DNA from: a virus
Strand: one strand, 5' to 3'
Virus record (IMG/VR): IMGVR_UViG_3300045988_052724
Coordinates: 125,818-189,817 of that record
DNA: 64,000 nucleotides
Shown: positions 40,051-54,986 of the stretch, piece after piece
Numbering within the stretch: position 1 is the stretch's first letter
How the letters are laid out: each line of letters begins with the position of its first letter
The notes under the pieces: generated by a model
What the model saw: only the letters and a program-made list of their open reading frames with translations
What the model was told of the DNA's origin: nothing
Database searches by the model: none
Translations under genes and position numbers: made by a program

Positions 40051-40271
40051 TGTTAGTACCTCTAAGTACCCAAATAGTTGCTGATGACCCTATAGAGGAA
40101 CGTCAGATAGCTAAGGAGAAATACTCATCGTACAAACGACCAGGAGTTGAACCAATTACTATAGTTAAGACATATGTAAAAGGTAACATACGATATTGGG
40201 AAGAGTGTACACCTAGTGGTATAATAGTTAGAATTAGTAGTAGAGAAATAACTCATAGTGCAGGAGTATAA
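40050..40271 (+). CDS. Hypothetical protein, 73 aa
   Basis: ORF track. Confidence 0.4.
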   Translation: MLVPLSTQIVADDPIEERQIAKEKYSSYKRPGVEPITIVKTYVKGNIRYWEECTPSGIIVRISSREITHSAGV

Positions 40272-40282
40272 CTGCACTAACT

Positions 40283-40818
40283 GGGCTTGCATGGTTTTGA
40301 CAGGCGATTACAAGTTATAAGGACGTGTAGAGTTCGTACCAACTCTTATAAAATGATACACAATTTTAAGTGGCAACACTGAAGTAAGAATGGCAGCTTA
40401 AGCTGTGGCTTATTAATATTAACGTATTAGTATAGTCGGGTTAACGGAGAAGACCTAGAAACAGAAGAGGTGTGGGAAGAAGCATATAGGGCAGCCCACT
40501 TAACTTGAACGCCAAAGGTTAGTAGAGCTGAGATTCTCCACAATGTGTATGGTAGAGACGCAAGGGCTATGCCTAAAAGTACTACTCGTTCTCCAACGTA
40601 AATGGAGTGGTGGAGAGCCGACTTCGGTCAGCCCAGGTTTGGTAGTTTGTAAATTAGCTTTAAGTGTACTGACTTCATCTATGATAAGTCTGGTTCTGAG
40701 TAAGACTAATAAAACTATCTACATGCTAGAACTCACTAGCTGATGTAATAAAAATGAGACACACGTTATCCTTGTAATAAGGGTTGTTTGGACGGCGGTT
40801 CGACTCCGCCCAAGTCCA
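40283..40818 (+). ncRNA. ssrA: tmRNA (SsrA), unusually long at about 536 nt
   Basis: The 5' strand GGGCTTG pairs with CAAGTCC at 40811-40817, giving a G3:U70 wobble (Ala identity). T-arm ggcgg-TTCGACT-ccgcc. GGTTTTGACAGG resembles the conserved GGATTCGACGGG. Candidate tag ORF GGC AAC ACT GAA GTA AGA ATG GCA GCT TAA at 40372-40401 encodes (A)GNTEVRMAA and starts about 90 nt from the 5' end. Confidence 0.75.
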
Positions 40819-40851
40819 CAAACATTATGTTTAACTAATCGACAATTTGAA

Positions 40852-41379
40852 ATGGAACAGAAAAAGAAACGAAATTACGGTAAGATGACAGCTGAAGAGT
40901 TGTCAGCTGCTGTAAATCTAGTGAAGTCTGAGAACTCTGGAGTATTCGGAGTTAAGGACATTAGAAGTGCATTTAAAGACCTAGGTGTGCCCATGTATAG
41001 CGAGTTTGCTACAACATTGGTTCAACAAGGTGTTCTCGTACAGGCAGGACTGACATATCAAGATGGATTTAGTTGGTCTAGTACAGAGCCTATTCATATA
41101 AATAAGGTAGTAGAGCTTATGACTATTACTCGTAAGAAAGTAGCTGCACAGGCAAGAAAGTATAGTCAAAAGAAGAAAGCTATACAACAAGGTACATGGG
41201 TTGAACAACCTAAAGAAACTACAGAGATTGAACAGGTACTTGAAGAAGTTCCAGTTCATGAACGTAAAGAGCTTGTACCAGTTGATAAGGCTATTAATAA
41301 GGCTATTAAATTATTAACCGAGAATGGTTATAGAGTCTCTAGACCAGTCTTAATATACGAAGAAGTAACAGTGAAATAA
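40852..41379 (+). CDS. Hypothetical protein, 175 aa
   Basis: ORF track. AACTAATCG motif upstream. Confidence 0.45.
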   Translation: MEQKKKRNYGKMTAEELSAAVNLVKSENSGVFGVKDIRSAFKDLGVPMYSEFATTLVQQGVLVQAGLTYQDGFSWSSTEPIHINKVVELMTITRKKVAAQARKYSQKKKAIQQGTWVEQPKETTEIEQVLEEVPVHERKELVPVDKAINKAIKLLTENGYRVSRPVLIYEEVTVK

Positions 41380-41380
41380 T

Positions 41381-41632
41381 ATGAGAAGAGTATATATTCA
41401 AATTATTGACCCGATTAATGGTACATATATAAATGCACGCCATGAATACCTCAATGCACATATGCAAGTCGTAGAGTCTACTCTAAGACAGTATGGCATA
41501 CGTAGCTCAGATTGTACACTTAAAACTGTGTCTAATATCGGTAAGGAGGTTCCTGGAATGCCCAAATACTCATTGTATCAAGGGTTGGTAAATGATACTT
41601 CCAAACTAGTAAATATAACTGTTGTAGGATAA
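41381..41632 (+). CDS. Hypothetical protein, 83 aa
   Basis: ORF track. Confidence 0.4.
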   Translation: MRRVYIQIIDPINGTYINARHEYLNAHMQVVESTLRQYGIRSSDCTLKTVSNIGKEVPGMPKYSLYQGLVNDTSKLVNITVVG

Positions 41633-41952
41633 CTCCTACTGCGAAACACGAAACTGACCTGATGAGTTAGGCTACATAGTGCGCACTATGTGGTTGACTT
41701 AAACGTGTATAAATAAAAGTTGGAACCTATTACGTATAGATTGTATTCTGCCCTCTGCGGGTGGATGAGGTGCAACTCCTCAATGTAATATATAAGGAGA
41801 GAATCCTTATATCTCTTGTAGTATCTATGTATAACTTGATTAATAGTCAGCATAACAAGAGTAGGTCGTCAGTGAAATTATTAAAAGATAGATTATGTAG
41901 GTAAAGTACGCTATATAATTATCTTATTTATGTATAAATAAGATATAAAACA
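41633..41952 (+). ncRNA. 320-nt ORF-free structured leader upstream of the TROVE-like gene
   Basis: Hairpins acatagtg-cg-cactatgt, tgagg-tgcaact-cctca, taagga-gagaa-tcctta. Contains cacgaaactgacctgatgagtt. Confidence 0.35.
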
Positions 41953-43755
41953 ATGGAATTTAGTAAGAAAAAGAAAAGTCTTTTTAAGACTGAAACTCCA
42001 ACGCAGGAGAACAACTTTGTGAAGGAGGGATTGAAGCTATCGGCTGAAACTGTGAGTGGAAACGGTGCTAAGAAGTATAGCACCAGTAACGATGCATTCG
42101 TAGACAACTTCTCAATGATTGCAAACTTTAAGGCACCTCGTGATTATGCTGAGGTATCTAAAGATATGTATAAATTGTGGAGTATTAATCCGAAGAAGTG
42201 TCTGCAACTCGCTGTATATATTCGGTTGATTACTCGTGAGACTCAGATTGTTCTTCCTAATGAAACTATCACTCTGGATGTTCAGAGAGGACAAGGCTTA
42301 AAGAATGAAGGTATTATGCGTATGCTATGGTTAGCTATGCATCACAAACCTACATTCATGGCTAACATGCCTTATTTCATCGCTGCTGGTAGTTGGAAGG
42401 ATGTATTTGAAATGATGAGCCTTGATTTACAATATCATGGCTGGGAAGGAAGGAAGTTGGATTGGAATTTCATGCGTAAGGTTATCTTAGCTGGATTAGC
42501 TAATGGTCATACAAGTGAATTGGTAAAGAAATACCTGCCAACTATTCGTTCAATGAAAGAATGTAAAACTGTTGAATCACAAGCTCGTACTATTATCGGT
42601 CAGTATCTTGCTTCTTGCATCTATGGTAAAAAGAAAGACAAGAAGGCAGATAAAGAGACTGCGGATAGCCGTGCTGCACAACGTAGATACAGGAAACTTA
42701 AACAGAGTGGAACTGCTCATACTTGGCAGCAATTAATAAGTCAGAAGAAGTTGCTCGAACTGGACTTCAATACCATTCATGGACGCGCTCTGAGCCTATT
42801 GGTAGGCTCTAAGTTCTTGAAAAATCAGGGATTAGTAGAGAAGTATTCTAAGTGGATAAGTGGTCGCAAAGTGGCTAAATACACTGGATTTGTGTTCGAG
42901 TTGTTCCAACCGCTTGGTGAAAGCTACCGTACTAATAGGCTTGAAGAGTATAGAGAACAGACTATCAATGCTCAGTTTAATGGGCTAGTTGAGACTGGAA
43001 GACAGAATCTTAACCAGAACAGCAAGCTGTTAGTGGTTAGAGATATTTCTGGTTCTATGACCTCTAAGGCAGTTGGAACCAATATGTCTTCTTATGCTAT
43101 TGGTAAAGCAATGGCATTATATTTCTCTGCTCTGTTGGATGGTCCATTTAAAGATGCCTATGCTACATTTAGTAGTACTTGTAAGCTCTGTACATGGAAG
43201 GGTAAGACTCCTATTGAGAAATGGGCTAACGACACAGATGGTAACTTTGGTAATACCAATTTACTATCTGTGGCAGATATGTTCGTTAAGCTGAGAAGCA
43301 CAATGAAGATTTCTGAGAACGAGTTCCCAACAGGAGCATTGTTGGTTAGTGATGGTGAATTTGATGCAGCTCGTAGTTGGGGTGGCTCAGGTGCATCCGT
43401 TACTAATTTTACTGCATTCAGACAAAGACTACTTAGAGGTGGTTTCAGTAAGGAGTATGTGGATAACTTTAAGTTAATCCTTTGGGATTTACCTAACGGT
43501 TATTATGGTGGAGGTCTTCGTCCTAAGTTTGAAGACTTTGCAGATGCTCCGAACAATTTCTATATCAGTGGCTATGACCCTGCTGCTGTAGCATTTATCT
43601 TGGGAACTAAACCATTCAAGGCTACACCTAAGAATGCAACAGAGTTGTTCAATGCAGCTATGGACCAAGAATTGTTAAATCGCCTTGTTGTGTCTGAACG
43701 AAAGGTGGTCAACAAAACTAAGAAGAATACAAACTTTAAAAAGAATAAGAAATAA
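41953..43755 (+). CDS. DUF2828/TROVE-like domain plus vWA domain protein, 600 aa (Ro60-like architecture)
   Basis: The N-terminal T.SGNGAKKYSTSNDAFVDNF...LW..NP...LQLAVYIRLITR...G.G.K.EG...LWLA pattern matches recalled DUF2828 proteins. vWA MIDAS VVRDISGSMTS lies near residue 362, as in Ro60. Confidence 0.55.
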   Translation: MEFSKKKKSLFKTETPTQENNFVKEGLKLSAETVSGNGAKKYSTSNDAFVDNFSMIANFKAPRDYAEVSKDMYKLWSINPKKCLQLAVYIRLITRETQIVLPNETITLDVQRGQGLKNEGIMRMLWLAMHHKPTFMANMPYFIAAGSWKDVFEMMSLDLQYHGWEGRKLDWNFMRKVILAGLANGHTSELVKKYLPTIRSMKECKTVESQARTIIGQYLASCIYGKKKDKKADKETADSRAAQRRYRKLKQSGTAHTWQQLISQKKLLELDFNTIHGRALSLLVGSKFLKNQGLVEKYSKWISGRKVAKYTGFVFELFQPLGESYRTNRLEEYREQTINAQFNGLVETGRQNLNQNSKLLVVRDISGSMTSKAVGTNMSSYAIGKAMALYFSALLDGPFKDAYATFSSTCKLCTWKGKTPIEKWANDTDGNFGNTNLLSVADMFVKLRSTMKISENEFPTGALLVSDGEFDAARSWGGSGASVTNFTAFRQRLLRGGFSKEYVDNFKLILWDLPNGYYGGGLRPKFEDFADAPNNFYISGYDPAAVAFILGTKPFKATPKNATELFNAAMDQELLNRLVVSERKVVNKTKKNTNFKKNKK

Positions 43756-43757
43756 GT

Positions 43758-44549
43758 ATGATTAAGCTTAACACTTTACTTGCTAAAGTAGAACATGGTA
43801 CATCAACATTCAATAGAATGATTGGTGATTATGCTGTGTTCTTTAAGAATAAGCAAGGTATGTTTGAGGGTATCAAGAAGACCTTCAAACCGAGAGATGG
43901 CTACGCAGAAGATGCTCGTTATATGGGCACTACTAAGGTAGCTACAACTGTAGAGGAGAAGCTCGCATGGTTCGAACAGAATGCAATTCCTTATTTGAAA
44001 GACCTATTCTCTGTTGAGGCAACTAACTCTGCTGGTGCACCGAGAGTTGAATTGATAGTAGATGGTATTTCATTTGGTAAGTTGACTGCTCTTGACCTTA
44101 TGAGGCTTAAAACTATCCTAACCAGTAAGCAGCTGGAAGATATGTACGCCAATGTACCAGTGCGTTCAGATTCTGAGGTTTGGCTTGAAGGAACTGATGC
44201 AGAATATCAGGGACGTGATGTACATGAGACAGAAATGTTGAAAGGTATAACTCGTACTACTGAATCTGAGGAAGTTATCCTTAAAGACCCGAATCTTGAC
44301 CCAGCTAAGTTACCTGCTAACTATAACGCTAAGGTTACTGTTAAGAAGAAAACAGTAGAAACTGGCGATTATACATTGCAGAAGTTTACTGGCGCCTGGA
44401 CACAGAGACAACGTGCTGAATTACTGCAAAGAAGAAGTAAGATTCTTGCAGCAGTGATTGAAGCATTGAAGGTTGTTAATGATAACGAAGCACAGAGTCC
44501 GAACCTCAGTGTAGAGAAACTCATTAACTTCTTGCATCATGGTAAGTAA
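43758..44549 (+). CDS. Hypothetical protein, 263 aa, translationally adjacent to the TROVE-like gene
   Basis: ORF track. Confidence 0.45.
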   Translation: MIKLNTLLAKVEHGTSTFNRMIGDYAVFFKNKQGMFEGIKKTFKPRDGYAEDARYMGTTKVATTVEEKLAWFEQNAIPYLKDLFSVEATNSAGAPRVELIVDGISFGKLTALDLMRLKTILTSKQLEDMYANVPVRSDSEVWLEGTDAEYQGRDVHETEMLKGITRTTESEEVILKDPNLDPAKLPANYNAKVTVKKKTVETGDYTLQKFTGAWTQRQRAELLQRRSKILAAVIEALKVVNDNEAQSPNLSVEKLINFLHHGK

Positions 44550-44660
44550 GAAATAAAATATTGACTAAAGCTTTAGCTTAAGCCTCAGCATTACTAAATC
44601 CTAGATATTTAGCATAAGCATTGAGTCAAGAGCTTTAGCTTTAGCCTTATAGTGAGAAAC

Positions 44661-44918
44661 CAGTAGCTTAAATAATCAATTGATTATAAATCTGACCATT
44701 CGCAGGTTCGAATCCTGTACGCGCCTCTAAACATAATCCTTTGTTTTAAAAGGTGAGATAGAAGCATAAGAATCAACATACTAGATAAGCAGTATTGCAA
44801 GTAAGCAGCAATCAGTATGACTCTTATGTGTATGATTCTCACCTTTCTACTAACATGGCGCGTTGGTGAAGTGGATTAACACGTCAGACTAATAAACAGC
44901 ATTAGCATGAAACTACTG
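44661..44918 (+). ncRNA. Circularly permuted tRNA-like RNA with a long imperfect closing stem
   Basis: Order is tctgac (stem), T-arm gcagg-TTCGAAT-cctgt, acgcgcc, a 131-nt insert with a 9-bp stem aaggtgaga/tctcacctt, ggcgcgt, D-arm-like gtgaagtggattaacac, gtcaga. The outer ends pair as cagtag/ctactg. Confidence 0.5.
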
Positions 44919-44971
44919 AACGTTATCTCACAACTAGGGGCTATCATCGAGGATTTTCGAGTTAGTCCTTA

Positions 44972-45046
44972 GGGGGGTTAGCTTAATGGTTAAAGCACAA
45001 GAACGTTTAATTCTTGGGAGTGGGAGTTCGACTCTCCCACCCTCTG
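44972..45046 (+). tRNA. tRNA-Lys(TTT)-like, atypical (G33, two G:U pairs in the acceptor)
   Basis: Cloverleaf gggggt/accctct, D gctt/aagc, loop cgtttaa, T gggag-TTCGACT-ctccc. Confidence 0.5.
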
Positions 45047-45083
45047 CTTCTTTTCGACATAATAAGAAATAATAGTAGAATAA

Positions 45084-45109
45084 ACTACTTGTCTGTGAAG
45101 ATAGGTAGT
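45084..45109 (+). ncRNA. Conserved GTGA-capped leader hairpin, copy 1
   Basis: Apical G-TCT-GTGA-AGA-T is conserved in 3 copies, with covarying basal stems. Confidence 0.45.
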
Positions 45110-45114
45110 AATAT

Positions 45115-45208
45115 AAGGGGATACGCAAATGGTAAAGCGGCAGTCATTAGGGACTGTGGTATAATATTCTAGGTGTATACATTGAGGGTTCGATTCCCTC
45201 TCTCCTTA
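45115..45208 (+). tRNA. Class II tRNA-like gene (long variable arm), irregular anticodon loop (6 or 8 nt, contains TAG/TTA); possibly Leu-derived or a pseudogene
   Basis: Acceptor aagggga/tctcctt, T gaggg-TTCGATT-ccctc, variable arm gtata...tatac, anticodon arm cagtc-attagg-gactg. Confidence 0.4.
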
Positions 45209-45238
45209 CAATTCTTTGTAAAAATTACATTTGTCAGC

Positions 45239-45266
45239 AGTTATTGGTCTGTGAAGATAGATAACT
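45239..45266 (+). ncRNA. Conserved GTGA-capped hairpin, copy 2
   Basis: agttattgg-TCT-GTGA-AGA-tagataact. Confidence 0.45.
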
Positions 45267-45436
45267 ATTAGTAGAGCATTAAGAAATGGTTTCTATAATG
45301 GGATATAGTAATAAATTTGATTGTTACAAAATTTAACATTATTCACTTTGTAGAGTCTAAAGATTACACTATCTTTGTACTCAGAAACGTTGAGAGAACG
45401 TGATTGTGTTTGTGTTTTATTTATCCCATTGTTGAG

Positions 45437-45520
45437 GGGAGTGCGCCAGAGTTGGAGAGCTGGGGCGGACTGTAAATCCGTTGCCTTCGGGCTGAGTAGG
45501 TTCGAATCCTACCACTCCCA
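45437..45520 (+). tRNA. tRNA-Tyr(GTA)
   Basis: Acceptor gggagtg/cactccc, loop ctgtaaa, long variable arm, T gtagg-TTCGAAT-cctac. Confidence 0.85.
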
Positions 45521-45558
45521 CAACAATATCTGCTAAAGTCAAGTGCTTTGGTGAAAAG

Positions 45559-45584
45559 TGTGCTCGTCTGTGAAGATGGGCACA
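45559..45584 (+). ncRNA. Conserved GTGA-capped hairpin, copy 3
   Basis: tgtgctcg-TCT-GTGA-AGA-tgggcaca. Confidence 0.45.
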
Positions 45585-45593
45585 TTTCATCTT

Positions 45594-45665
45594 GCAGGAT
45601 TAGTACAATGGTTAGTATGTCAGACTTCCAATCTGAATATGAGAGTTCGATTCTCTTATCCTGCT
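45594..45665 (+). tRNA. tRNA-Gly(TCC)
   Basis: gcaggat/atcctgc, loop cttccaa. Confidence 0.85.
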
Positions 45666-45672
45666 CAAATTT

Positions 45673-45746
45673 GCGGGTATAGCTCAATCGGCTAGAGTAC
45701 CACCTTGCCAAGGTGGAAGTTGTGGGTTCGAATCCCATTACCCGCT
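45673..45746 (+). tRNA. tRNA-Gly(GCC)
   Basis: gcgggta/tacccgc, loop ttgccaa. Confidence 0.85.
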
Positions 45747-45754
45747 CTTCTTAT

Positions 45755-45827
45755 GGGCTGATAGTGATAACGGTAAGCACTTCTGCTTTGCACGCAGAGA
45801 GTCTAGGTTCGAATCCCAGTCGGTCCA
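45755..45827 (+). tRNA. tRNA-Ala(TGC)
   Basis: gggctga/tcggtcc with G3:U70, loop tttgcac. Confidence 0.75.
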
Positions 45828-45838
45828 CTATTTATAAT

Positions 45839-45910
45839 GGTGCATTGGTCTAATGGTCAGGATACTAGACTGTCTATCTTGGGGTACGAGTTCGATTCTC
45901 GTATGCACCG
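45839..45910 (+). tRNA. tRNA-Asp(GTC)
   Basis: ggtgcat/atgcacc, loop ctgtcta, one U:U mismatch in the anticodon stem. Confidence 0.75.
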
Positions 45911-46163
45911 CATTCTTCCCCAATCTTCCAAAGGGTGAGACGGAAGCGTTATGTTGAGGGCATCACGATAGAGAGACCTTAGTATCATGCTAACTTGAAA
46001 GCATGGAGAGCATTCGCTAATAAGGCTCTCTTAAATATTTTTAGTGAGGTTAGGTAAAGCTAGCATAGCCTAATGACAGGAATTTAGTCCATAATAGATG
46101 GAAACCAATGAAGTGAGGATTGAAGTCTTCCTTATGTCCAACTAAATTCCTTTATTCAACATC
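45911..46163 (+). ncRNA. Structured spacer (several strong hairpins)
   Basis: cttcc...ggaag, catgct-aacttgaa-agcatg, and the 11-bp aggaatttagt/actaaattcct. Confidence 0.3.
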
Positions 46164-46249
46164 GCGGATTAGAGAAGTGGTCTATCTCGCCAGTCTCATA
46201 AGCTGGAACACTCATAAGGTGTCACAAGTTCGAATCTTGTATCCGCAAC
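46164..46249 (+). tRNA. Atypical tRNA, anticodon CAT, long variable arm, C1:A72 mismatch
   Basis: cgcggat/atccgca, D gaga/tctc, ccagt-CTCATAA-gctgg, 17-nt variable arm acac...gtgt, T acaag-TTCGAAT-cttgt. Confidence 0.6.
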
Positions 46250-46264
46250 TAACTTAATGTATTA

Positions 46265-46441
46265 TGGAAGAGAAATTAGACTTAATTATTCAAAAATTAG
46301 ATGAATTGCTTGTATTAGCAAAACGTATTCATAAAGATACAGAGCCATCTATTGAGAATAATGCATCTGAATATCTTCTAAATGTATTAGGTGATGTTAC
46401 TGGCGATGTCTTAATGCAAGGTTTTACTGGTAGCAGATAAG
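46265..46441 (+). CDS. Hypothetical protein, 58 aa
   Basis: Hand translation MEEKLDLIIQKLDELLVLAKRIHK.... Confidence 0.35.
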
Positions 46442-46452
46442 GAAATTAATAT

Positions 46453-46535
46453 GTGGGATGGTGTAAGGGTAACATTCTAGGCTCATAACCTAGAGACAGT
46501 AATGCTTGTGGTGGTTCGAATCCACCTCCCGCTAC
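46453..46535 (+). tRNA. Atypical tRNA, anticodon CAT, long variable arm, U1:U72 mismatch
   Basis: tgtggga/tcccgct, ctagg-CTCATAA-cctag, 17-nt variable region, T ggtgg-TTCGAAT-ccacc. The HNH ORF starts 2 nt downstream. Confidence 0.6.
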
Positions 46536-46536
46536 T

Positions 46537-47007
46537 ATGAAGAGCAGGATTGATACATTTAATGATTCTACATTTAAGGAGATAGTTAGTTCTTCATCAA
46601 CTTGGAAAGAACTAGCGGAGAGATTTGGATATGAAAGTACCTTGTCCTCAAACCTTAAAGCTAAGATTATTCAAAGATGTAAGTCCCTAGGCATTCCTTG
46701 CTTAGAGATTGCTAAGAAGATACCTGCAAACCAAAGAACTAAAGGAGAGTTGTTTACTACATTAAAGAATTGGCAAACTGCTAGAACAGCAATTAGGAAA
46801 GATGCCCAAGCCGTATTTGATAAATCTAATATCCCAAGATGTTGTGCTGTATGTGGATATGATAAACACATTGAGATAGCACACATTAAAGCCGTAGCCG
46901 ATTTTGATGATGGTACTTTAGTTTCTGAGATAAATGATATAAATAATCTAATAGCCTTATGTCCTAATCACCACTGGGAATATGATAATGGGCTTTTAGA
47001 ATTGTAA
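46537..47007 (+). CDS. HNH homing-type endonuclease, 156 aa
   Basis: CAVCGYDKHIEIAHIKAV ... LCPNHHWEYDNG. Confidence 0.75.
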   Translation: MKSRIDTFNDSTFKEIVSSSSTWKELAERFGYESTLSSNLKAKIIQRCKSLGIPCLEIAKKIPANQRTKGELFTTLKNWQTARTAIRKDAQAVFDKSNIPRCCAVCGYDKHIEIAHIKAVADFDDGTLVSEINDINNLIALCPNHHWEYDNGLLEL

Positions 47008-47099
47008 TGATATTACTCCAGGCAATGCAGAGAATTTCTCTGTTATTAGGACTGTTGTAGTTACGAAGAGTATGAGGGGTGAAACTCATAACTCACTAT

Positions 47100-47166
47100 A
47101 AGAAAGCATACAGCAACTATTTCAGCATCAAACTTTCAATTTGACACCGCTAAAACTGCTTTCTGT
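47100..47166 (+). ncRNA. Box element (agaaagc ATACAGCAA ... gctttct GT), simple form
   Basis: Closing 7-bp helix plus the conserved box. Ends 6 nt before tRNA-Ile. Confidence 0.55.
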
Positions 47167-47172
47167 TTAGAT

Positions 47173-47246
47173 TGGGTGATGGCGCAATTGGTTAGCGCAC
47201 CTCTCTGATAAGGAGGAGGTTCTGGGTTCAAGTCCCAGTCACCCAA
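47173..47246 (+). tRNA. tRNA-Ile(GAT)
   Basis: tgggtga/tcaccca, loop ctgataa. Confidence 0.85.
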
Positions 47247-47263
47247 CATCTTGATGATAGAAT

Positions 47264-47335
47264 AAGAAGTCTAACAGCAAATTACTAATCCAACATTTGA
47301 TTGCTATTCAAATTAATGATTACAGCGACTTCTGT
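47264..47335 (+). ncRNA. Box element (agaagtc TAACAGCAA ... gacttct GT), simple form
   Basis: As above. Ends 4 nt before tRNA-Val. Confidence 0.55.
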
Positions 47336-47339
47336 AAAT

Positions 47340-47413
47340 AGTCCCTTAGCTCAGTTGGTGAGAGTATCTGGCTTACATCCAGAGGGTCGTAGGTTCGAAC
47401 CCTACAGGGACTA
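47340..47413 (+). tRNA. tRNA-Val(TAC)
   Basis: agtccct/agggact, loop cttacat. Confidence 0.85.
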
Positions 47414-47496
47414 CGTAATGCACGTGAGGCTAGCGTGACGTAGACATTCCTATCCCTGACAGCAAATATGGAATCCACATCGTAGGGTGGCGTTGG

Positions 47497-47527
47497 TACT
47501 ACAGCAAGGGTAGTGTTATCTGTAGTA
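47497..47527 (+). ncRNA. Leader hairpin tactacag/ctgtagta containing ACAGCAA
   Basis: 8-bp perfect stem. Ends 3 nt before tRNA-Asn. Confidence 0.4.
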
Positions 47528-47530
47528 ATT

Positions 47531-47605
47531 GGGGAGTTAGCTATAATTGGTTAGAGCGACGGGCTGTTAACCCGTAGGTTGTCGGTTCGAACCCGACACT
47601 CCCCT
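47531..47605 (+). tRNA. tRNA-Asn(GTT)
   Basis: ggggagt/actcccc, loop ctgttaa. Confidence 0.85.
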
Positions 47606-47687
47606 CAACCTAGCGAGGTTTCACGTACTAATATGTACACAAAAGAGAACTTCTACGTAGATTTGTTGTGAAACAAGTCTACTATAT

Positions 47688-47759
47688 GCGTCGGTGGCAT
47701 GACTGGGAAGCAACGCTCTCCAAAAGCGTGATATGGGGGTTCGAATCCCTCACGGCGTG
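47688..47759 (+). tRNA. tRNA-Trp(CCA), weak D-arm
   Basis: acgct-CTCCAAA-agcgt, T ggggg-TTCGAAT-ccctc. The acceptor has wobbles. Preceded by the 11-bp GTGA-capped hairpin gtagatttgtt/aacaagtctac. Confidence 0.65.
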
Positions 47760-47777
47760 CAGCGATTAGTTATCAAT

Positions 47778-47849
47778 AAGAAGACTTACAGCAAACAATT
47801 ATGATTATAGCAGTATTTTGGACCGCAAATATCAACAATAGTCTTCTGT
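47778..47849 (+). ncRNA. Box element (agaagac TTACAGCAA ... gtcttct GT), simple form
   Basis: Ends 5 nt before tRNA-Pro. Confidence 0.55.
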
Positions 47850-47854
47850 TAAAT

Positions 47855-47928
47855 TGGGAGGTAGGACAATGGGCTAGTCTACTACATTTGGGATGTAGAG
47901 GTTGCGAGTTCGAATCTCGTCCTCCCAA
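47855..47928 (+). tRNA. tRNA-Pro(TGG)
   Basis: tgggagg/cctccca, loop tttggga. Confidence 0.85.
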
Positions 47929-47950
47929 CACATTTATGGTTAAGTTATAT

Positions 47951-48107
47951 AAGAATACTTACAGCAAAACTTAAAGCAAATTCAAACAAATCGTAATTTT
48001 GTCTTAAACGTAGGTTCGATTCCTACCCTTCCCACCATTGTGTGACTATTTAAATGGGAAGGTTGAAATGTTGGGGTAGTCCGAAAGGGCGAAAAGAAGT
48101 ATTCTGT
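47951..48107 (+). ncRNA. Box element (agaatac TTACAGCAA ... gtattct GT) enclosing a permuted tRNA-like core
   Basis: Interior order: T-arm gtagg-TTCGATT-cctac, ccttccc-ACCA, 18-nt loop, gggaagg. Ends 4 nt before tRNA-Ala. Confidence 0.55.
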
Positions 48108-48111
48108 CTAT

Positions 48112-48184
48112 GGGGAGGTAGCATAATTGGCTAATGCACTAGATTTGCAATCTGGAGGATTGGGTTCGAGTCCCACCTGCTCCA
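48112..48184 (+). tRNA. tRNA-Ala(TGC), second copy
   Basis: ggggagg/ctgctcc with G3:U70, ctaga-TTTGCAA-tctgg. Confidence 0.7.
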
Positions 48185-48271
48185 CGAATCTTAGAGATTC
48201 ATGTTTCAACAACTCTTTATTTAAATTAGACCCAGATAGAGAAACATAAATACACGTAAAGTAGTGTTTAT

Positions 48272-48343
48272 GTAGGGTTGCCCGAGCGGTTTAGGGGCTG
48301 GTCTGCAAAACCAGTTAGAACGGTTCGACTCCGTTACCCTACT
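48272..48343 (+). tRNA. tRNA-Cys(GCA)
   Basis: gtagggt/accctac, ctggt-CTGCAAA-accag. Confidence 0.8.
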
Positions 48344-48362
48344 CTATTTTGAGTTTAACGAA

Positions 48363-48484
48363 AAGAAACCTTACAGCAATACCTCTATGCCTTGTAAGCC
48401 GTAGGTTATGGGTTCGAGTCCCATAGGTGGATACGTCCACTTTAGCTCAATTGGATAGAGCAACGTATTAAAAATGGTTTCTGT
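48363..48484 (+). ncRNA. Box element (agaaacc TTACAGCAA ... ggtttct GT) enclosing a permuted tRNA-like domain with a tetraloop-capped acceptor
   Basis: atggg-TTCGAGT-cccat, then gtgga-TACG-tccac, then tt-agctcaattggatagagc (canonical D-arm). Confidence 0.65.
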
Positions 48485-48522
48485 ACCCACATCTATTGTT
48501 AATTCAATAATGTGGGTTTTCT

Positions 48523-48596
48523 CACCCCGTAGCTTAATTGGTTAAAGCCTTGCACTTTTAATGCAGAGAGTCCGAGTTCGAGTCTCGGCGGGGTGA
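48523..48596 (+). tRNA. tRNA-Lys(TTT)
   Basis: caccccg/cggggtg, loop cttttaa. Confidence 0.85.
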
Positions 48597-48633
48597 CAAG
48601 GTGTTTTTCATAACACCTCCTTTCAACTACTGT

Positions 48634-48851
48634 AAGAGGACATACAGCAAAGTCTGATACAACTAATTATTAAATTCAATGACTGTCTCCGAAGTAATCC
48701 CGTAAGGGTGCAGGCAAGACTAGAGTAGGACGCTTGAAGTAAATGTACTAAGCTATGAGAATTAGCCCTGACTATGCTAGGTAAGTATAGTGTCTACCCA
48801 TTCTGAATTGGGAGAGTGGGAGACATTAAATGTAAAACCCATGTCCTCTGT
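48634..48851 (+). ncRNA. Box element (agaggac ATACAGCAA ... gtcctct GT) with a 200-nt structured interior
   Basis: Nested long-range pairs gtctcc/ggagac. Local hairpins ccc-GTAA-ggg and ccca-ttctgaat-tggg. Confidence 0.5.
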
Positions 48852-48852
48852 T

Positions 48853-48903
48853 AAACCTATCCATCGAATTTCTGTTTCTGGAGTTTTGGATAGGTTTATT
48901 TTA
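48853..48903 (+). terminator. Intrinsic terminator
   Basis: aaacctatcc...ggataggttt (10 bp) followed by atttt. Confidence 0.6.
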
Positions 48904-48945
48904 ACTAACAAGATTGACATATTTATTCAGTAACACTATCTTATT

Positions 48946-49050
48946 ATGAAAGCAATTAGACTAATTAAGAAGGCTGTTAAGTGGTATTTGGACAGAACTG
49001 CTAATTCTTACATCTACCCTACTGGAACTCTCCCTATTATAAAGGAGTAA
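48946..49050 (+). CDS. Possible microprotein, 34 aa
   Basis: MKAIRLIKKAVKWYLDRTANSYIYPTGTLPIIKE. TTGACA-17 nt-TATCTT lies upstream. Confidence 0.25.
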   Translation: MKAIRLIKKAVKWYLDRTANSYIYPTGTLPIIKE

Positions 49051-49092
49051 GTTCCTATGCTGCTGAAGTGAATATGTAAATCAACAAACTAT

Positions 49093-49184
49093 GGAAGTGT
49101 AAGCCTAATTGCTAAGGCAGCGGTCTTGAAAACCGCCAGTAATCGTGTAACAGCGATGTGTGGGTTGGAGTCCCACCACTTCCT
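49093..49184 (+). tRNA. tRNA-Ser(TGA)
   Basis: ggaagtg/cacttcc, gcggt-CTTGAAA-accgc, long variable arm, unusual T-loop TTGGAGT. Confidence 0.75.
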
Positions 49185-49206
49185 CAACTATCAACAACAA
49201 AGTATT

Positions 49207-49515
49207 ATGACAGGAAGATTTAGAGCAATTAACAAGATTAGTAAACACAAGATGTCCTTATTATGGGATAGAGCATTTGCAGTACTTACAAAGGAGTATG
49301 CAGTGGTCAATGCTATTAATAAAGGATTTAGTGAAGAGAGCAAACAAGTAGTAACTAAGAGATTTGATTACCTCGAATCCTTAATCTCTACTGGTCACTT
49401 AGAGAAAATGCCTCGTAAAATGAAGAAGGCATTTATAAGAGAACTTTCAGCAAGGTATAACCTTTGTCTGATTATATTACAACATTGGGATGAATTTAAA
49501 GAAATAAAGGCATGA
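49207..49515 (+). CDS. Hypothetical protein (start moved to the ATG downstream of tRNA-Ser)
   Basis: The ORF-track 49126 start lies inside the tRNA. MTGRFRAINK... begins at 49207. Confidence 0.45.
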   Translation: MTGRFRAINKISKHKMSLLWDRAFAVLTKEYAVVNAINKGFSEESKQVVTKRFDYLESLISTGHLEKMPRKMKKAFIRELSARYNLCLIILQHWDEFKEIKA

Positions 49516-49581
49516 TTGACGTATTATTAGCAGACATTGTATTTGATTGGACTTTCCTAAAACCCTTAATTGAAAGAGACG

Positions 49582-49842
49582 ATGGAAAGAAAGAATCAAA
49601 CGAAGTGGATGAGTCCACGCAACAGGTATTGGCGCAAGCAGAAGTTAGTCCAGAAATATATTACTAGGTTAAAGAAGTTTCCTGCTAGTAATTATGGATT
49701 GTGGTGTGATAACTATAATCAACATTGGACTTTGCCTTATAAATCAACAAGTACTCCATGTAGTTGTTGGTTATGTAAAGGAGAACGATATAATAGACGA
49801 AAGTTTAAAAAGGAAACTAGACTTGAAATAGCAATGTTTTAA
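49582..49842 (+). CDS. Hypothetical basic protein
   Basis: ORF track frame, first ATG. Confidence 0.4.
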   Translation: MERKNQTKWMSPRNRYWRKQKLVQKYITRLKKFPASNYGLWCDNYNQHWTLPYKSTSTPCSCWLCKGERYNRRKFKKETRLEIAMF

Positions 49843-49856
49843 GTTATTTAATTTAT

Positions 49857-50000
49857 AAGAAGTCTTACAGCAACAACATTAGCAATTCGATTATGGTTCG
49901 ACTAGCCTGGGTTCAACTCCCAGCAACCTCCCAAATTATTAGTACTATATGGAGGTTGTAGTGTAACGGTTAGCACAGTATATGCAAACAAATGACTTCT
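49857..50000 (+). ncRNA. Box element (agaagtc TTACAGCAA ... gacttct) enclosing a permuted tRNA-like domain
   Basis: ctggg-TTCAACT-cccag, caacctcc, 18-nt loop, ggaggttg, ta-gtgtaacggttagcac (D-arm). Ends 6 nt before tRNA-Arg. Confidence 0.6.
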
Positions 50001-50006
50001 GATGAT

Positions 50007-50078
50007 GCCTCGATAGTTCAACGGATAGAACAGTAGCCTTCTAAGCTACATATCTAGGTTCGATTCCTAGTCGGGGTA
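50007..50078 (+). tRNA. tRNA-Arg(TCT)
   Basis: gcctcga/tcggggt, gtagc-CTTCTAA-gctac. Confidence 0.8.
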
Positions 50079-50208
50079 CTAACTTGGCAAGGTTGACTTA
50101 TAGACCGAGGTTGTGGTAGGGGTAGTGCCTTATGTGGATGAGGTCGTACCTTATTGGTGATGCATCACTAATCATAAATGGAAGTGGGTACGAGTGTAGG
50201 TCTAACAT

Positions 50209-50281
50209 GGTGTTTATAGTTCAACGGTTAGAATAACTGATTGTGGTTCAGTAGATGTGGTTTCGACTACCACTAAACACC
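50209..50281 (+). tRNA. tRNA-His(GTG) with encoded G-1
   Basis: 8-bp acceptor ggtgttta/taaacacc, actga-TTGTGGT-tcagt. Confidence 0.85.
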
Positions 50282-50376
50282 CTTATGGCAGTAGGTTTTA
50301 AAATAAAATCTTCCTGTTTGTTTACTATTGCCTTAACGTGGTTTAGAAGGATTGCACGAAAATAAATCCTTCCTCT

Positions 50377-50448
50377 GGGGCGGTAGCTCAATGGTAGAGC
50401 GCAGGTCTGAAGAGCCTGGCGTTGGAGGTTCGATTCCTCCTCGCCCCA
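50377..50448 (+). tRNA. tRNA-Phe(GAA)
   Basis: ggggcgg/tcgcccc, caggt-CTGAAGA-gcctg. Confidence 0.85.
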
Positions 50449-50463
50449 CGTCGATTAGTAGAC

Positions 50464-50582
50464 GAGAACTAACAGCATTAGCATTGTTTCCCAAGCAGTT
50501 GGTCTGAGGTTCGAATCCTCACGTTAGCTTAGGCTAATGTAGCTCAGTGGTAGAGCAACAGCCTCATAAACAAATAGTTCTC
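50464..50582 (+). ncRNA. Box element (gagaac TAACAGCA ... gttctc) enclosing a permuted tRNA-like domain
   Basis: tgagg-TTCGAAT-cctca, cgttagc-TTAG-gctaatg, ta-gctcagtggtagagc, then acagc-CTCATAA. Confidence 0.6.
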
Positions 50583-50621
50583 AGCTGTTTTACAGAGTTA
50601 CAGGTTAAAGAAACTCTGTAT

Positions 50622-50709
50622 GGAGAGTTGGGTGAGCGGTCGAAACCAGAGTCCTGCTAAGACTCCGAACCTCAAAAGGGTTCCGCTAGTTCGAATCTAG
50701 CACTCTCCG
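50622..50709 (+). tRNA. tRNA-Ser(GCT)
   Basis: ggagagt/actctcc, gagtc-CTGCTAA-gactc, long variable arm. Confidence 0.85.
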
Positions 50710-50747
50710 CAAGTATATTTGGAATTTTTGTATAATAATGATTAATT

Positions 50748-51086
50748 ATGATTACTATGACAAAGATTCAGCCTATAAATCCTAATGAAATAATCAGCGA
50801 GAAGGTAAAGATAATACCTGACCAAGTTATTAGGGTTTTCAACGAACTGATTGCAAGAAACTGGAACAAAGACAAATCAATAGTGTTTACTAATGAAGCT
50901 GTTGAGTTTATAAAGTTTCTGACTGGTGCTAGTAAGGATACTATCATACAAAACCATTGGTTAGATGTAGAACCTCTCTACAGAGAAAATGGATATGAAG
51001 TAACTTACCATGAGTCCCAGGGTAATGAATCCTTCCCCTCATATTATGAGTTTAGGAAGAAGTCTCTAAATGCTGGGTTCGAATAA
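50748..51086 (+). CDS. Hypothetical protein, 112 aa; 3' end overlaps tRNA-Glu by 15 nt
   Basis: ORF track. Confidence 0.4.
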   Translation: MITMTKIQPINPNEIISEKVKIIPDQVIRVFNELIARNWNKDKSIVFTNEAVEFIKFLTGASKDTIIQNHWLDVEPLYRENGYEVTYHESQGNESFPSYYEFRKKSLNAGFE

Positions 51087-51143
51087 CGGCTAGTTCCTCA
51101 CACTTTCGATGTGAAGATAGGGGTTCGATTCCCCTACCCAGTA
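51072..51143 (+). tRNA. tRNA-Glu(TTC)
   Basis: gctgggt/acccagt, tcaca-CTTTCGA-tgtga. Confidence 0.8.
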
Positions 51144-51326
51144 CCTTGTAGTCCTCCTTAATCCTTAATAGGATAGTTAGGCTACACTGTGAACGAACAG
51201 AGGAGAGGAGTTCACACGTTGGCTAGCAACGTAGTACACAATGGTGGGATAGGAACGGCTAGCACCCACCTTAACTGTTCTTATAATACTAGTTAAACGC
51301 CTAGCGGGGGTTAGAACAGTTAAAAT
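51144..51326 (+). ncRNA. Structured spacer
   Basis: atcct-taat-aggat, ggtggg...cccacc, and the 11-bp ttaactgttct/agaacagttaa. Confidence 0.3.
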
Positions 51327-51398
51327 ACTCCTATCTACTAATGGTTAGGTAATCGGTCTCTCAAGCCGAAAATACGGGTTCGAATCCCGTTGGGAGTA
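51327..51398 (+). tRNA. tRNA-Glu(CTC)
   Basis: actccta/tgggagt, tcggt-CTCTCAA-gccga. Confidence 0.7.
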
Positions 51399-51469
51399 CG
51401 ATAATGGGGTACCATTATGAAAATCATCTTATAACAGAGTTATCAGTTCGTGAGAATAGATAACTAATC

Positions 51470-51539
51470 GAGGGCGTAGTGTAATGGTCAGCACGCCTCC
51501 CTGTCACGGAGGTAGAGGGGTTCGAGTCCCACGTTCTCG
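51470..51539 (+). tRNA. tRNA-Asp(GTC), second copy, weak T-stem
   Basis: gagggcg/cgttctc, cctcc-CTGTCAC-ggagg. Confidence 0.55.
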
Positions 51540-51568
51540 GCTGAACGTAGTAAGAATTACTTTATTGA

Positions 51569-51715
51569 AAGAAGACTTACAGCAAATCAAAACTACTAAG
51601 AATCAATTGGTAAGTGAAAGGTGCAGGGTTCGATTCCTTGCCTATACCGCTAAAGTCCTGATGGGTATAGTAGTTTAAATGGTTAGAACGTATTAGAAAC
51701 AGGCAATAGTCTTCT
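51569..51715 (+). ncRNA. Box element (agaagac TTACAGCAA ... gtcttct) enclosing a permuted tRNA-like domain
   Basis: caggg-TTCGATT-ccttg, ctatacc, 14-nt loop, ggtatag, ta-gtttaaatggttagaac. Confidence 0.6.
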
Positions 51716-51745
51716 GAGCGTACATCTAAGTATGTACGCTAATTC

Positions 51746-51805
51746 GCCTCCTTAGCTTTAATGGTAGAGCAACTCACTTGTAATGAGAAGGTTGTCAGTT
51801 AAGTA
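51746..51805 (+). pseudogene. 3'-truncated tRNA-Thr(TGT)
   Basis: gcctcct acceptor strand, D-arm and ctca-CTTGTAA-tgag are present. There is no matching T-stem or 3' acceptor strand. Confidence 0.5.
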
Positions 51806-51849
51806 TTACAAAGATTAGCATTTGCAAATGTTTTTATGTAAAATGATTT

Positions 51850-52227: not shown

Positions 52228-52230
52228 TCT

Positions 52231-53178: not shown

Positions 53179-53184
53179 TAGTAG

Positions 53185-54291: not shown

Positions 54292-54304
54292 CATAGTATA
54301 TTAT

Positions 54305-54402: not shown

Positions 54403-54407
54403 TTTAT

Positions 54408-54479: not shown

Positions 54480-54494
54480 CTAAGAGATAATCTT

Positions 54495-54955: not shown

Positions 54956-54986
54956 TGATAATGTTTTAATGTAAATAAGTAGAAAA

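Follow-up and report, generated by a model that had tools for sequence, protein, structure and literature searches.

A phage protein with a predicted Ro60-like fold and an adjoining RNA that contains a tRNA-like module, ahead of a tRNA array

The 600-aa ORF at 41953-43755 is best read, with somewhat better than even confidence, as a divergent Ro60-like RNA-binding protein that acts on small structured RNAs and recurs as an accessory gene in tRNA-rich phages. The window, the whole stretch of 64,000 nucleotides that was analysed, comes from a large gut phage of ~185 kb. The features of the locus are:

40283-40821, plus strand: tmRNA, ~540 nt (Rfam RF00023).
40852-41379, plus strand: 175-aa ORF between the tmRNA and the structured RNA (ORF list).
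41381-41632, plus strand: 83-aa ORF whose stop codon abuts the RAGATH-34 RNA (ORF list).
41634-41733, plus strand: RAGATH-34 motif (RF03103), the 5' domain of the structured RNA (Rfam).
41634-41871, plus strand: whole structured ncRNA, ~240 nt, RAGATH-34 plus 3' domain (covariation).
41889-41919, plus strand: promoter-like block (conservation).
41920-41945, plus strand: 5'-UTR hairpin TATCTT...AAGATA, just before the ATG.
41953-43755, plus strand: Ro60-like DUF2828/DUF7788 protein, 600 aa (Pfam, PHROG, AF2, Foldseek).
43758-44549, plus strand: DUF7873 protein, 263 aa (Pfam).
44972-62622, plus strand: tRNA array, 33-34 genes with interspersed small ORFs (ARAGORN, Rfam).

The tmRNA covers the full RF00023 model (1-374) at 83.3 bits, against a gathering score of 47, and has a large insertion relative to that model. 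ARAGORN does not call it. A candidate tag ORF, GNTEVRMAA-stop, is located at 40372-40401. The initial annotation placed the Ro60-like gene next to this tmRNA; the tmRNA is present, but two ORFs intervene. The 175-aa ORF has no Pfam or PHROG match, and some members of the close clade keep it at 75-98%. The 83-aa ORF also lacks a family match in Pfam and PHROG, and most members of the close clade have a homolog of it (51-100%) immediately before the RNA. Of 80 related loci, ~40 have a full-length tmRNA homolog on the same strand, in most cases 1-5 kb upstream of the DUF2828 gene.

Behind the gene, the expected tRNA array is present, with 33 tRNAs according to ARAGORN and 34 Rfam tRNA matches, all on the plus strand. 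The layout with the array downstream of the module is also seen in relatives, and the grouping of the gene with a tmRNA, a structured RNA and a tRNA array is conserved within the phage's own group. The co-oriented 263-aa ORF, previously of no assigned family, matches Pfam DUF7873 (E 7.5e-31) and is probably co-transcribed with the Ro60-like gene, from which a 2-nt gap separates it. Only the clade of >=59% identity has DUF7873 beside the DUF2828 gene. Its AF2 model (pLDDT 83) retrieved no Foldseek PDB match with a probability >0.21, and as modelled the protein has no recognisable fold. Two other proposals for proteins inside the array fared less well. The ORF at 52231-53178, described as a second vWA protein, has no Pfam match, and the supposed SPFH/Band-7 protein at 54987-55883 has a weak Band_7 match (E 0.002) that falls below the cut-off.

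The 600-aa protein has a helical domain at its N terminus (residues ~21-350), followed by a vWA domain (~356-560) whose MIDAS is complete. Pfam DUF7788 is matched above cut-off at residues 361-560 (E 6e-10), DUF2828 below cut-off at residues 37-163 (22.3 bits; cut-off 29), and PHROG 850, "RNA-binding protein", at residues 31-556 (E 8e-30). The N-terminal domain is basic, with 58 K+R and 35 D+E. The DISGSM motif noted at the outset is intact: across 70 homologs, VVRDISGSM (D364, S366, S368), T435 and D467 do not vary. The family comprises 3475 representatives (50% clustering) at E <= 1e-3. PHROGs and GenBank label the DUF2828/DUF7788 family "RNA-binding protein".

By sequence the protein is not a canonical TROVE-family Ro60, because the TROVE HMM matches neither it nor any of the 70 homologs, and hhalign aligns only 38 columns with Bxz1 gp220, at the MIDAS strand (probability 53%). 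Pfam vWA_Ro60 gives weak matches in 10 of the 70 homologs, and the family profile finds no Ro60 among PDB sequences. These tests (TROVE HMM, hhalign and PDB profile) contradict a canonical Ro60/Rsr ortholog acquired from a bacterium and acting exactly as Rsr does together with YrlA and with PNPase or RtcB. Such an ortholog would agree with the domain order and overall fold, with the adjoining RNA that carries a tRNA-like module, and with RtcB near the homolog in Listeria phages, yet given the sequence results it is very improbable.

At the level of fold the Ro60 domain order that had been proposed is retained. The confident AF2 model (pLDDT 87.6, pTM 0.87) was compared with the PDB by Foldseek, and the best 8 matches are all Ro60, over ~575 columns. 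They include Xenopus 1yvr, human cryo-EM entries and 9l5y from Thermus phage phiLo. The match to 1yvr has E 4e-8 and TM-scores of 0.49/0.55 over 575 columns, and a TM-score of ~0.5 shows a Ro60-like two-domain architecture in the predicted model. A "Ro-like RNA binding protein" of a Gordonia phage is among the matches in BFVD. Every PDB match other than Ro covers the vWA domain only, and vWA domains that bind proteins, such as those of MDN1 and integrins, make up many of the matches to the C-terminal half.

The latter matches bear on a different reading, which seems unlikely, that the protein is a counter-defence factor directed at proteins. Its vWA/MIDAS would bind and block a host defence protein such as ppl, RNA would not be its ligand, and the vicinity of tRNAs would reflect the clustering of accessory or early genes. 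MIDAS sites of vWA domains classically bind acidic residues of protein ligands, and the invariance of the full MIDAS is in keeping with this. The full-length fold match, however, is specific to Ro60, and the basic N-terminal domain also speaks against a factor that ignores RNA. Ro60 retains its MIDAS while binding RNA, so both activities are compatible.

The region upstream of the gene was initially described as a 320-nt structured leader. Its structure is supported by covariation, but most of it looks to be an RNA separate from the gene's promoter-like block. RAGATH-34, its 5' domain, scores 73.6-73.8 bits with the full Rfam model (gathering score 60.7). It comprises the conserved loop CUGAUGA, a long hairpin that varies, GACUUAAA, and a tail, UAUAAAUAAAAGUUGGAACCU, that is single-stranded and conserved. 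In three loci (L009, L010 and L022) an entirely different sequence forms the hairpin between invariant flanks. No mention of RAGATH-34 was found in the literature searched. The 3' domain is closed by a helix of AACCUA (41724-41729) with UAGGU (41862-41866). This helix encloses an acceptor-like helix (41740-41747/41782-41789), a small hairpin (41750-41761), a T-arm-like hairpin with the loop UGCAACU (41766-41782), a hairpin with a GAGAA loop (41790-41812) and a further helix, CUCUUGU/ACAAGAG (41813-41819/41855-41861).

RNAalifold predicts 34 pairs for the ~240-nt RNA, 20-21 of them with compensatory changes. In the alignment 97% of cells are paired, against 35-46% in slid controls, a value reached by 0 of 500 shuffles; the single-sequence fold has a z-score of -2.4. 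Clade 2 has a full cloverleaf at the position of the tRNA-like module (42.6 bits on Rfam tRNA), and its RAGATH-34 copy scores 120.9 bits. None of the Y RNA families in Rfam matches the ~240-nt RNA at E <= 1, which is a further point against a canonical Rsr-YrlA system.

The promoter-like block, TAGATTATGTAGG-N8-GCTATATAAT, is unique in the window and is kept in all close relatives, including two (L019 and L021) that lack RAGATH-34. A sigma-70 scan does not call it, and its role as a promoter is putative. Most relatives have, between the RNA and the gene, a strong terminator-like hairpin with a U-tract and then the promoter-like block. In the window no terminator-like hairpin was found between the two.

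The RNA may be a Y-RNA-like partner of the protein, since in IMG/VR 41 of the 42 informative RAGATH-34 copies sit <900 nt upstream of a DUF2828 gene. A lesser but real possibility is that it is no trans-acting partner, and is either a cis element (a 5' leader or processing signal governing expression of the gene behind it) or an independent sRNA of the tRNA island, held there by inherited synteny. Its position immediately upstream on the same strand, with nothing resembling a terminator before the gene in the window, would suit a cis element, and a tRNA-like fold could serve to attract RNase P or RNase Z for the processing of a polycistronic transcript. Three RAGATH-34 variants (L092, L201 and L211) occur in phages without an adjacent DUF2828 gene, and the intermediate and many other DUF2828 clades lack RAGATH-34. 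The phages of the two clades that bear it are related to each other, and inherited synteny could account for the linkage. Against a simple leader stands the U-tract hairpin and promoter-like block that part RNA from gene in most relatives. The position of the RNA is also kept across proteins only 43% identical, although the surrounding intergenic sequence has diverged, and only the forms linked to DUF2828 carry the tRNA-like insert.

Homologs in other phages share the RNA-centred setting that was proposed for the module. Linkage to tRNA genes, tmRNA or RNA ligases was found in all nine deposited phage lineages checked, which belong to several phage families. In Felixounavirus 25 tRNAs begin 166 nt downstream of the DUF2828 gene, and in an Enterococcus phage 15 tRNAs and a tmRNA lie upstream of the homolog. 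Listeria phage LMTA-57 has a tRNA array upstream and RtcB 1.3 kb downstream; in Serratia jumbo phage BF an RNA ligase adjoins the homolog and a CCA-adding enzyme is nearby. Three tRNA genes stand 240 nt upstream in Campylobacter phage F352, and in Cronobacter S13 the homolog is inside the tRNA cluster. Among metagenomic loci, 43 of 65 have at least 3 tRNAs within 5 kb and ~12 have none. Generic gene clustering, as the counter-defence reading requires, explains poorly the linkage to RtcB, Rnl, CCA-adding enzyme, tmRNA and tRNAs in nine lineages, and the directly upstream tRNA genes of F352 likewise argue against it.

A point for counter-defence comes from Bas63 gp130, which a 2024 PhageMaP preprint (PMC11482910) found structurally similar to Ro60 and called Ro60-like; the preprint also noted its place upstream of tRNAs and considered a use of Y RNAs possible. 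Gp130 is reported to counter the ppl defence, and plasmid-expressed gp130 alone rescues T7, which is without tRNA genes, on ppl hosts (PMC11482910). At least that activity thus needs no phage-encoded RNA. Because the preprint had already described gp130, the core idea of a phage Ro60-like protein near tRNAs is not new; together with the PHROGs/GenBank label, this weakens the initial expectation of novelty.

If the protein is the divergent Ro60-like RNA-binding protein that we favour, it would bind tRNA-shaped RNAs early in infection, either phage or host tRNAs or damaged forms of them. It could also, or alternatively, bind the upstream ~240-nt RNA, which would take the role that Y RNAs have for Ro60. 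The resulting RNP might protect or sort RNAs in the face of host nucleases and defence systems, or might pass them to repair enzymes. The net outcome would be that the phage translation apparatus (tRNAs and tmRNA) stays working.

Several known systems resemble the locus. Gp130 of Bas63 (Escherichia phage JohannRWettstein, MZ501086) belongs to the same family and has both Pfam domains; hhalign pairs it with the window protein at 99.1% (E 5e-19, 428 columns), and both genes stand at the head of a tRNA array. The window protein, however, is ~130 aa longer and only ~21% identical, and the two phages are unrelated. The RAGATH-34/tRNA-like RNA and DUF7873 that flank the window gene are both absent from the scanned Felixounavirus locus HY02. 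In cluster C1 phages a Ro-like protein occurs with ~31-34 tRNAs and a tmRNA (PMC9583779, PMC4472892), so the trio attributed to Bxz1-type phages is genuine, and the window phage is likewise rich in tRNAs with a tmRNA. Bxz1 gp220 has TROVE and vWA_Ro60 domains. Like Ro60/Rsr (1YVR, 9L5Y, Bxz1 gp220), the window protein has a helical domain and a vWA domain with MIDAS, but without detectable TROVE sequence homology and with a TM-score of only ~0.5. In Thermus phage phiLo, the canonical Ro60 protein phiRo60 binds Yrl RNAs encoded next to it and attenuates PNPase (PMC12135203).

Mimicry of tRNA is known from bacterial Y RNAs, and as with YrlA, a structured small RNA with a tRNA-like module adjoins the window gene (PMC4201824). 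Unlike Y RNAs, this RNA has a RAGATH-34 5' domain and lacks the long terminal Ro-binding stem. The RF03103 entry describes only a ~107-nt sRNA motif. In the window the conserved "unstructured" 3' tail of that motif pairs ~135 nt downstream, so that RAGATH-34 forms the 5' domain of a longer RNA of ~240 nt with a tRNA-like insert, and a DUF2828 gene almost always follows RAGATH-34. Relative to the rsr-yrlBA-rtcBA operon, the protein family differs, and tblastn of the window with Listeria-phage RtcB, Serratia-phage RNA ligase and CCA-enzyme queries found no homolog, in agreement with the initial annotation as to RtcB. Some relatives, such as Listeria phage LMTA-57 and Serratia phage BF, nevertheless resemble that operon in that an RNA ligase accompanies the Ro-like protein and a tRNA-like ncRNA.

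The Ro60-like gene lies in the genome of a tailed phage with a GC content of about 33-40%, whose terminase, portal and tail genes occupy the minus strand at 5.8-21 kb of the window. The gene itself is on the plus strand, in the following order of features.

40283-40821, plus strand: tmRNA (Rfam, 83 bits)
40852-41379 and 41381-41632, plus strand: two small conserved ORFs, between the tmRNA and the 320-nt gap
directly 5' of the 600-aa ORF, plus strand: non-coding gap of 320 nt
41953-43755, plus strand: 600-aa ORF (the window protein)
43758-44549, plus strand: 263-aa ORF, DUF7873
44972-62622, plus strand: 33-34 tRNA genes

The coordinates and domain order that the initial annotation gave for the 600-aa ORF are correct. 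Pfam DUF7788 matches residues 361-560 with 39.2 bits (cut-off 27.1), and PHROG 850, "RNA-binding protein", matches the protein at E 8e-30. DUF2828 reaches 22.3 bits in the window protein, under the cut-off of 29, and is detected at E ≤ 10 in 60 of 70 close homologs. The MIDAS residues of the DxSxS motif (D364, S366, S368), together with T435 and D467, are invariant in the 70 homologs. The vWA domain with its MIDAS is C-terminal to the helical domain, which is the arrangement expected of a Ro60 protein. An AlphaFold2 model calculated from an alignment of 70 sequences (43-99% identity) is confident, with a pLDDT of 87.6 and a pTM of 0.87. The best eight Foldseek matches to this model in the PDB are all Ro60 structures (564-623 columns, E 4e-8 to 6e-5, TM 0.39-0.55) and include Xenopus 1yvr and 2i91, four human cryo-EM entries and the Ro60 of Thermus phage phiLo. 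Matches of rank 9 and beyond cover the vWA half only. A Gordonia phage "Ro-like RNA binding protein" is among the structure matches in the viral library. The predicted helical-repeat and vWA fold can be superimposed on solved Ro60, with rmsd values to these structures of 8-13 Å. The model thus has the architecture of Ro60, and its fold is probably the same.

Sequence comparisons give a different picture. TROVE (Pfam PF05731) does not match the window protein at E ≤ 0.1 or any of the 70 homologs at E ≤ 10, and vWA_Ro60 matches are faint and confined to 10 of the 70 (best E 0.012). Searches of PDB sequences with the window protein alone or with the family profile returned no Ro60, only a marginal vWA match. 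Bxz1 gp220 is a genuine phage Ro60 (TROVE 9e-50, vWA_Ro60 4e-54), and hhalign aligns the family with it over 38 columns only, in the vWA domain around the MIDAS strand. By these measures the DUF2828/DUF7788 family is distinct, and its membership in TROVE is not established. The family is large, with 3475 representatives at 50% clustering (E ≤ 1e-3) and matches in 355 deposited phage genomes. One member is gp130 of Bas63 (Escherichia phage JohannRWettstein, MZ501086), which hhalign places in the family with 99.1% probability over 428 columns and which has both Pfam domains.

Several details initially given for the surroundings of the gene need correction. The tmRNA, described initially as adjacent, is 1.1 kb away. 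It scores 83.3 bits against the Rfam model RF00023 (gathering threshold 47, model positions 1-374), has conserved ends of the GGGG...UCCACNA type, and contains a tag reading frame, GNTEVRMAA*. At about 540 nt it is unusually long; compared with the Rfam model it carries about 219 nt of inserted sequence, and a 66-aa ORF (40543-40743) lies inside it. ARAGORN calls no tmRNA at 40283-40821, probably on account of this insertion. Full-length homologs on the same strand are present in about 40 of 80 IMG/VR loci, and two human fecal phage contigs share 82-95% identity with the 3' part of the tmRNA in the window. DUF7873 was considered as a general partner and rejected, as it adjoins the DUF2828 gene in the closest clade only. 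Its AlphaFold2 model is acceptable (pLDDT 83), and neither Foldseek (best probability ≤0.21) nor HMM searches against the PDB matched it to a known fold. The ORF at 52231-53178, initially called a second vWA protein, has no match in a Pfam search and belongs to PHROG 2971 (function unknown); family support for the SPFH protein placed in the island is weak. The initial report that the window contains no RtcB-type ligase agrees with tblastn searches using a Listeria phage RtcB query, which found no match at E ≤ 1e-4. The Rnl and CCA enzyme of a Serratia phage likewise have no tblastn match in the window at E ≤ 1e-4. By these searches an RNA repair operon of the Rsr-RtcB type, in which an RNA ligase accompanies the Ro-like gene, is not present in the window, and such genes occur in some relatives only.

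Genomic context was surveyed in 80 IMG/VR loci whose proteins are 44-99% identical, and the proximity of tRNA genes was tabulated for 65. At least three tRNAs lie within 5 kb in 43 of these 65 loci, and about 12 have none within that distance. The start codon is preceded, at 25-32 nt, by the end of a tRNA in about 17 loci. The arrangements in deposited phages are as follows.

Positions of RNA genes and RNA-processing genes relative to the DUF2828 gene in deposited phages
Felixounavirus HY02 and Bas63: 24-25 tRNAs beginning about 165 nt downstream
Enterococcus phage ZJGS2: 15 tRNAs and a tmRNA upstream
Listeria phage LMTA-57: tRNA array upstream; RtcB 1.3 kb downstream
Serratia jumbo phage BF: RNA ligase two genes upstream and a CCA-adding enzyme in the vicinity
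Campylobacter phage F352: three tRNA genes 240 nt upstream
Cronobacter S13: gene within a tRNA cluster; CCA enzyme 5 kb away
Vibrio nt-1: tRNAs 3-7 kb upstream
Staphylococcus phage S-CoN_Ph3: tRNA-Pro gene 2.3 kb downstream
Leptolyngbya phage: one tRNA 2.7 kb upstream

Of the indirect arguments for a role centered on tRNAs or other small RNAs, the strongest is that this linkage recurs in several phage families. The main alternative is that the protein uses its MIDAS to inhibit a defense protein directly, and it is favored by the report that gp130 counters the bacterial ppl defense even when transferred alone into T7 (PMC11482910). The tRNA-centered role is the reading preferred here. Two of these loci contain RNAs that are candidates for other partners: the tRNA array of LMTA-57 contains a "drum" RNA (RF02958, L083:1101-1199), and Cronobacter phage S13 has two abnormally long "tRNAs" (113-121 nt, L237:7422-7664) 0.5 kb downstream of the DUF2828 gene, one of which is annotated tRNA-OTHER.

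The 320-nt gap was initially described as a structured leader. A structured RNA is indeed present, but most of the gap is probably a separate and larger RNA of about 240 nt (41634-41871) rather than a simple leader. Its 5' domain, at 41634-41733, is the Rfam motif RAGATH-34 (RF03103; 73.6-73.8 bits against a gathering threshold of 60.7, model positions 1-107). Among relatives, the sequences flanking a hairpin in this domain are invariant, and the hairpin sequence is wholly replaced in some genomes. The conserved single-stranded 3' tail of RAGATH-34 (…GUUGAAACCUA) pairs with UAGGU about 135 nt downstream, and three elements lie within the resulting helix: a T-arm-like hairpin (5-bp stem, 7-nt loop), a GAGAA-loop hairpin and a 7-bp helix. 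The T-arm-like loop varies among the RNAs (UGCAACU, UUUGAGU, UUAAAUU). Across two clades the 34 proposed pairs are 97% paired, as compared with 35-46% when the partners are slid. Changes on both sides are found in 21 of the 34 pairs, a level reached by none of 500 shuffles (slid controls, 0-4), and they represent few independent covariation events because most of them separate the two clades.

The insert of the second clade is a complete cloverleaf, with a 7-bp acceptor stem, a D arm with GG, a 5-bp anticodon stem, a 4-nt variable loop and a T arm. This cloverleaf (L124:417-487) scores 42.6 bits against the Rfam tRNA model (RF00005, threshold 29). Its T loop (UGCAAAU) is atypical, it lacks a free 3' end, and it is joined to a RAGATH-34 domain scoring 120.9 bits. 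The copy in the window, which does not match the Rfam tRNA model at E ≤ 1, has lost the D arm and retains an 8-bp acceptor-like helix and the T arm. A hammerhead reading of the CUGAUGA and GAAAC blocks in RAGATH-34 was rejected on inspection, as the order and spacing of the core elements forbid stems I-III. A much shorter conserved element, CTGATGAGTACGAAC(T/C)AAGT..GACTTAA, has CUGAUGA and GACUUAA blocks in common with RAGATH-34; it occurs in another clade, on the strand opposite to the DUF2828 gene and 3-4 kb downstream of that gene (minus-strand sites L032:13544, L034:14542, L035:15237, L036:14333 and L054:6562).

Between this RNA and the ATG, most relatives have, in order, a strong hairpin with a U-tract, the conserved block TAGATTATGTAGG-N8-GCTATATAAT and a short UTR hairpin. 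Because the terminator-like hairpin and the conserved block lie between the RNA and the gene in most relatives, 41634-41871 is read as a putative separate RNA gene or processed unit. In the window the terminator-like hairpin is absent and the block is present; scans of 40200-45000 for sigma-70 promoters and terminators gave nothing above shuffled expectation. The promoter-like block and the UTR hairpin (41889-41945) occur once in the window and are also kept in relatives that lack RAGATH-34 (L019, L021). This uniqueness and conservation suggest gene-specific regulation rather than a general phage promoter.

Linkage between RNA and gene was counted in IMG/VR with a strict RAGATH-34 pattern, which found 49 copies; a looser first pattern had given more than 120 stretches, mostly by chance. 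In 41 of the 49, including a clade with only 43-44% protein identity, a same-strand DUF2828 homolog starts downstream at a distance below 900 nt; seven others are truncated by the end of the available sequence, and one has no such DUF2828 gene. The two clades that carry RAGATH-34 are probably related phages, and DUF2828 clades intermediate between them lack it. A third variant of the RNA, in other phages (L092, L201, L211), lacks the tRNA-like insert and has no DUF2828 gene next to it. An Rfam scan of six deposited loci (Felixounavirus, Listeria, Enterococcus, Vibrio, Serratia and Leptolyngbya phages) found tRNAs, a tmRNA and a "drum" RNA only, and no RAGATH-34.

The tRNA island has other unusual features. 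The box AAGAnnnCTTACAGCAA occurs in 10 copies on its plus strand (47100-54321), where about one is expected. Downstream of several copies, at 30-50 nt, there is a lone T-arm (GGTTCGAnTCC) with an acceptor-like 3' end, in one case terminating in CCA. No tRNA is called at these elements by ARAGORN or by Rfam, and they are probably the Y-RNA-like "box elements" of the initial annotation. Examples of box or tRNA-like elements, all on the plus strand, are at 44640-44727, 47945-48037, 48355-48430, 49851-49930, 50465-50525 and 56620-56700. A 368-aa ORF in the island (53185-54291, plus strand) matches PHROG 1211, "2-aminooxy adenylosuccinate synthetase" (PurZ-like), at E 3.5e-41, which hints that the phage DNA may have 2-aminoadenine in place of adenine; Bxz1 gp250 has the same PurZ-like annotation. 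The tRNA at 45115-45209 is called with a 4-nt anticodon (ttag), and phages of the second clade encode an amber-suppressor-type tRNA with anticodon CTA (L124:4704-4776 and homologs). These two tRNAs suggest that phages of this group reassign a stop codon or suppress frameshifts.

The role of the tRNA arrays of large phages in evading tRNA-targeting defenses is an active topic. The present family, unnamed and widespread (about 3500 clusters at 50% identity), consistently occurs beside tRNA arrays, has a predicted Ro60-like fold and has one reported counter-defense phenotype, and is therefore a strong candidate for the role of the missing caretaker of the tRNAs of phages. Fold, homology, synteny and RNA structure are here matters of observation, and we infer from the analysis that the window protein binds RNA, forms an RNP and exerts a biochemical effect. 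The best-supported reading is that a Ro60-like RNA-binding protein would act on tRNA-shaped RNAs, with the adjacent RAGATH-34/tRNA-like RNA as a candidate Y-like partner. Its purpose could be to protect or repair the translation RNAs of the phage, or to neutralize host nucleases or defenses. A more specific proposal is speculative and, in our estimation, rather doubtful: that RAGATH-34 serves as the protein-binding domain in a phage Y-like RNA of a new class; that the ~240-nt RNA and the DUF2828 Ro60-like protein form an RNP in which the tRNA-shaped module is presented to host tRNA-directed nucleases, PNPase or repair enzymes and acts on them as a decoy, tether or sensor; and that a second Ro/Y system, evolved independently and devoted to the protection of phage tRNAs and tmRNA, would exist here. 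The orphan Rfam motif RAGATH-34 gains a genomic partner, as part of a larger RNA with a tRNA-like module fixed directly 5' of the gene, and this linkage yields a directly testable RNP hypothesis. If true, it would extend the Ro/Y paradigm to a second protein family, one linked to anti-defense.

The searched literature contained no functional paper on DUF2828 and none naming RAGATH-34. The RNA described here, a conserved structured neighbor of the gene, has a tRNA-like module; it lacks the terminal long stem of a Y RNA and has no Rfam Y RNA match at E ≤ 1. For canonical Ro60 proteins of phages, adjacent Y-like RNAs are documented (PMC4201824, PMC12135203), and the Bxz1-type trio of Ro homolog, tmRNA and large tRNA set mentioned in the initial annotation is real (PMC4472892). 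Bas63 gp130 is reported to have high structural similarity to Ro60 and tRNA genes directly downstream, some of which it might take as Y RNAs (PhageMaP preprint, PMC11482910). There is thus a precedent for the core interpretation. The finding is real and makes biological sense, but its headline idea, initially thought to be new, has already been published for a homolog. The present analysis sets the family clearly apart from TROVE, shows that its linkage to tRNA, tmRNA and RNA ligase genes is general, and reassigns the "leader" to an extended RAGATH-34/tRNA-like RNA that is closely tied to the gene.
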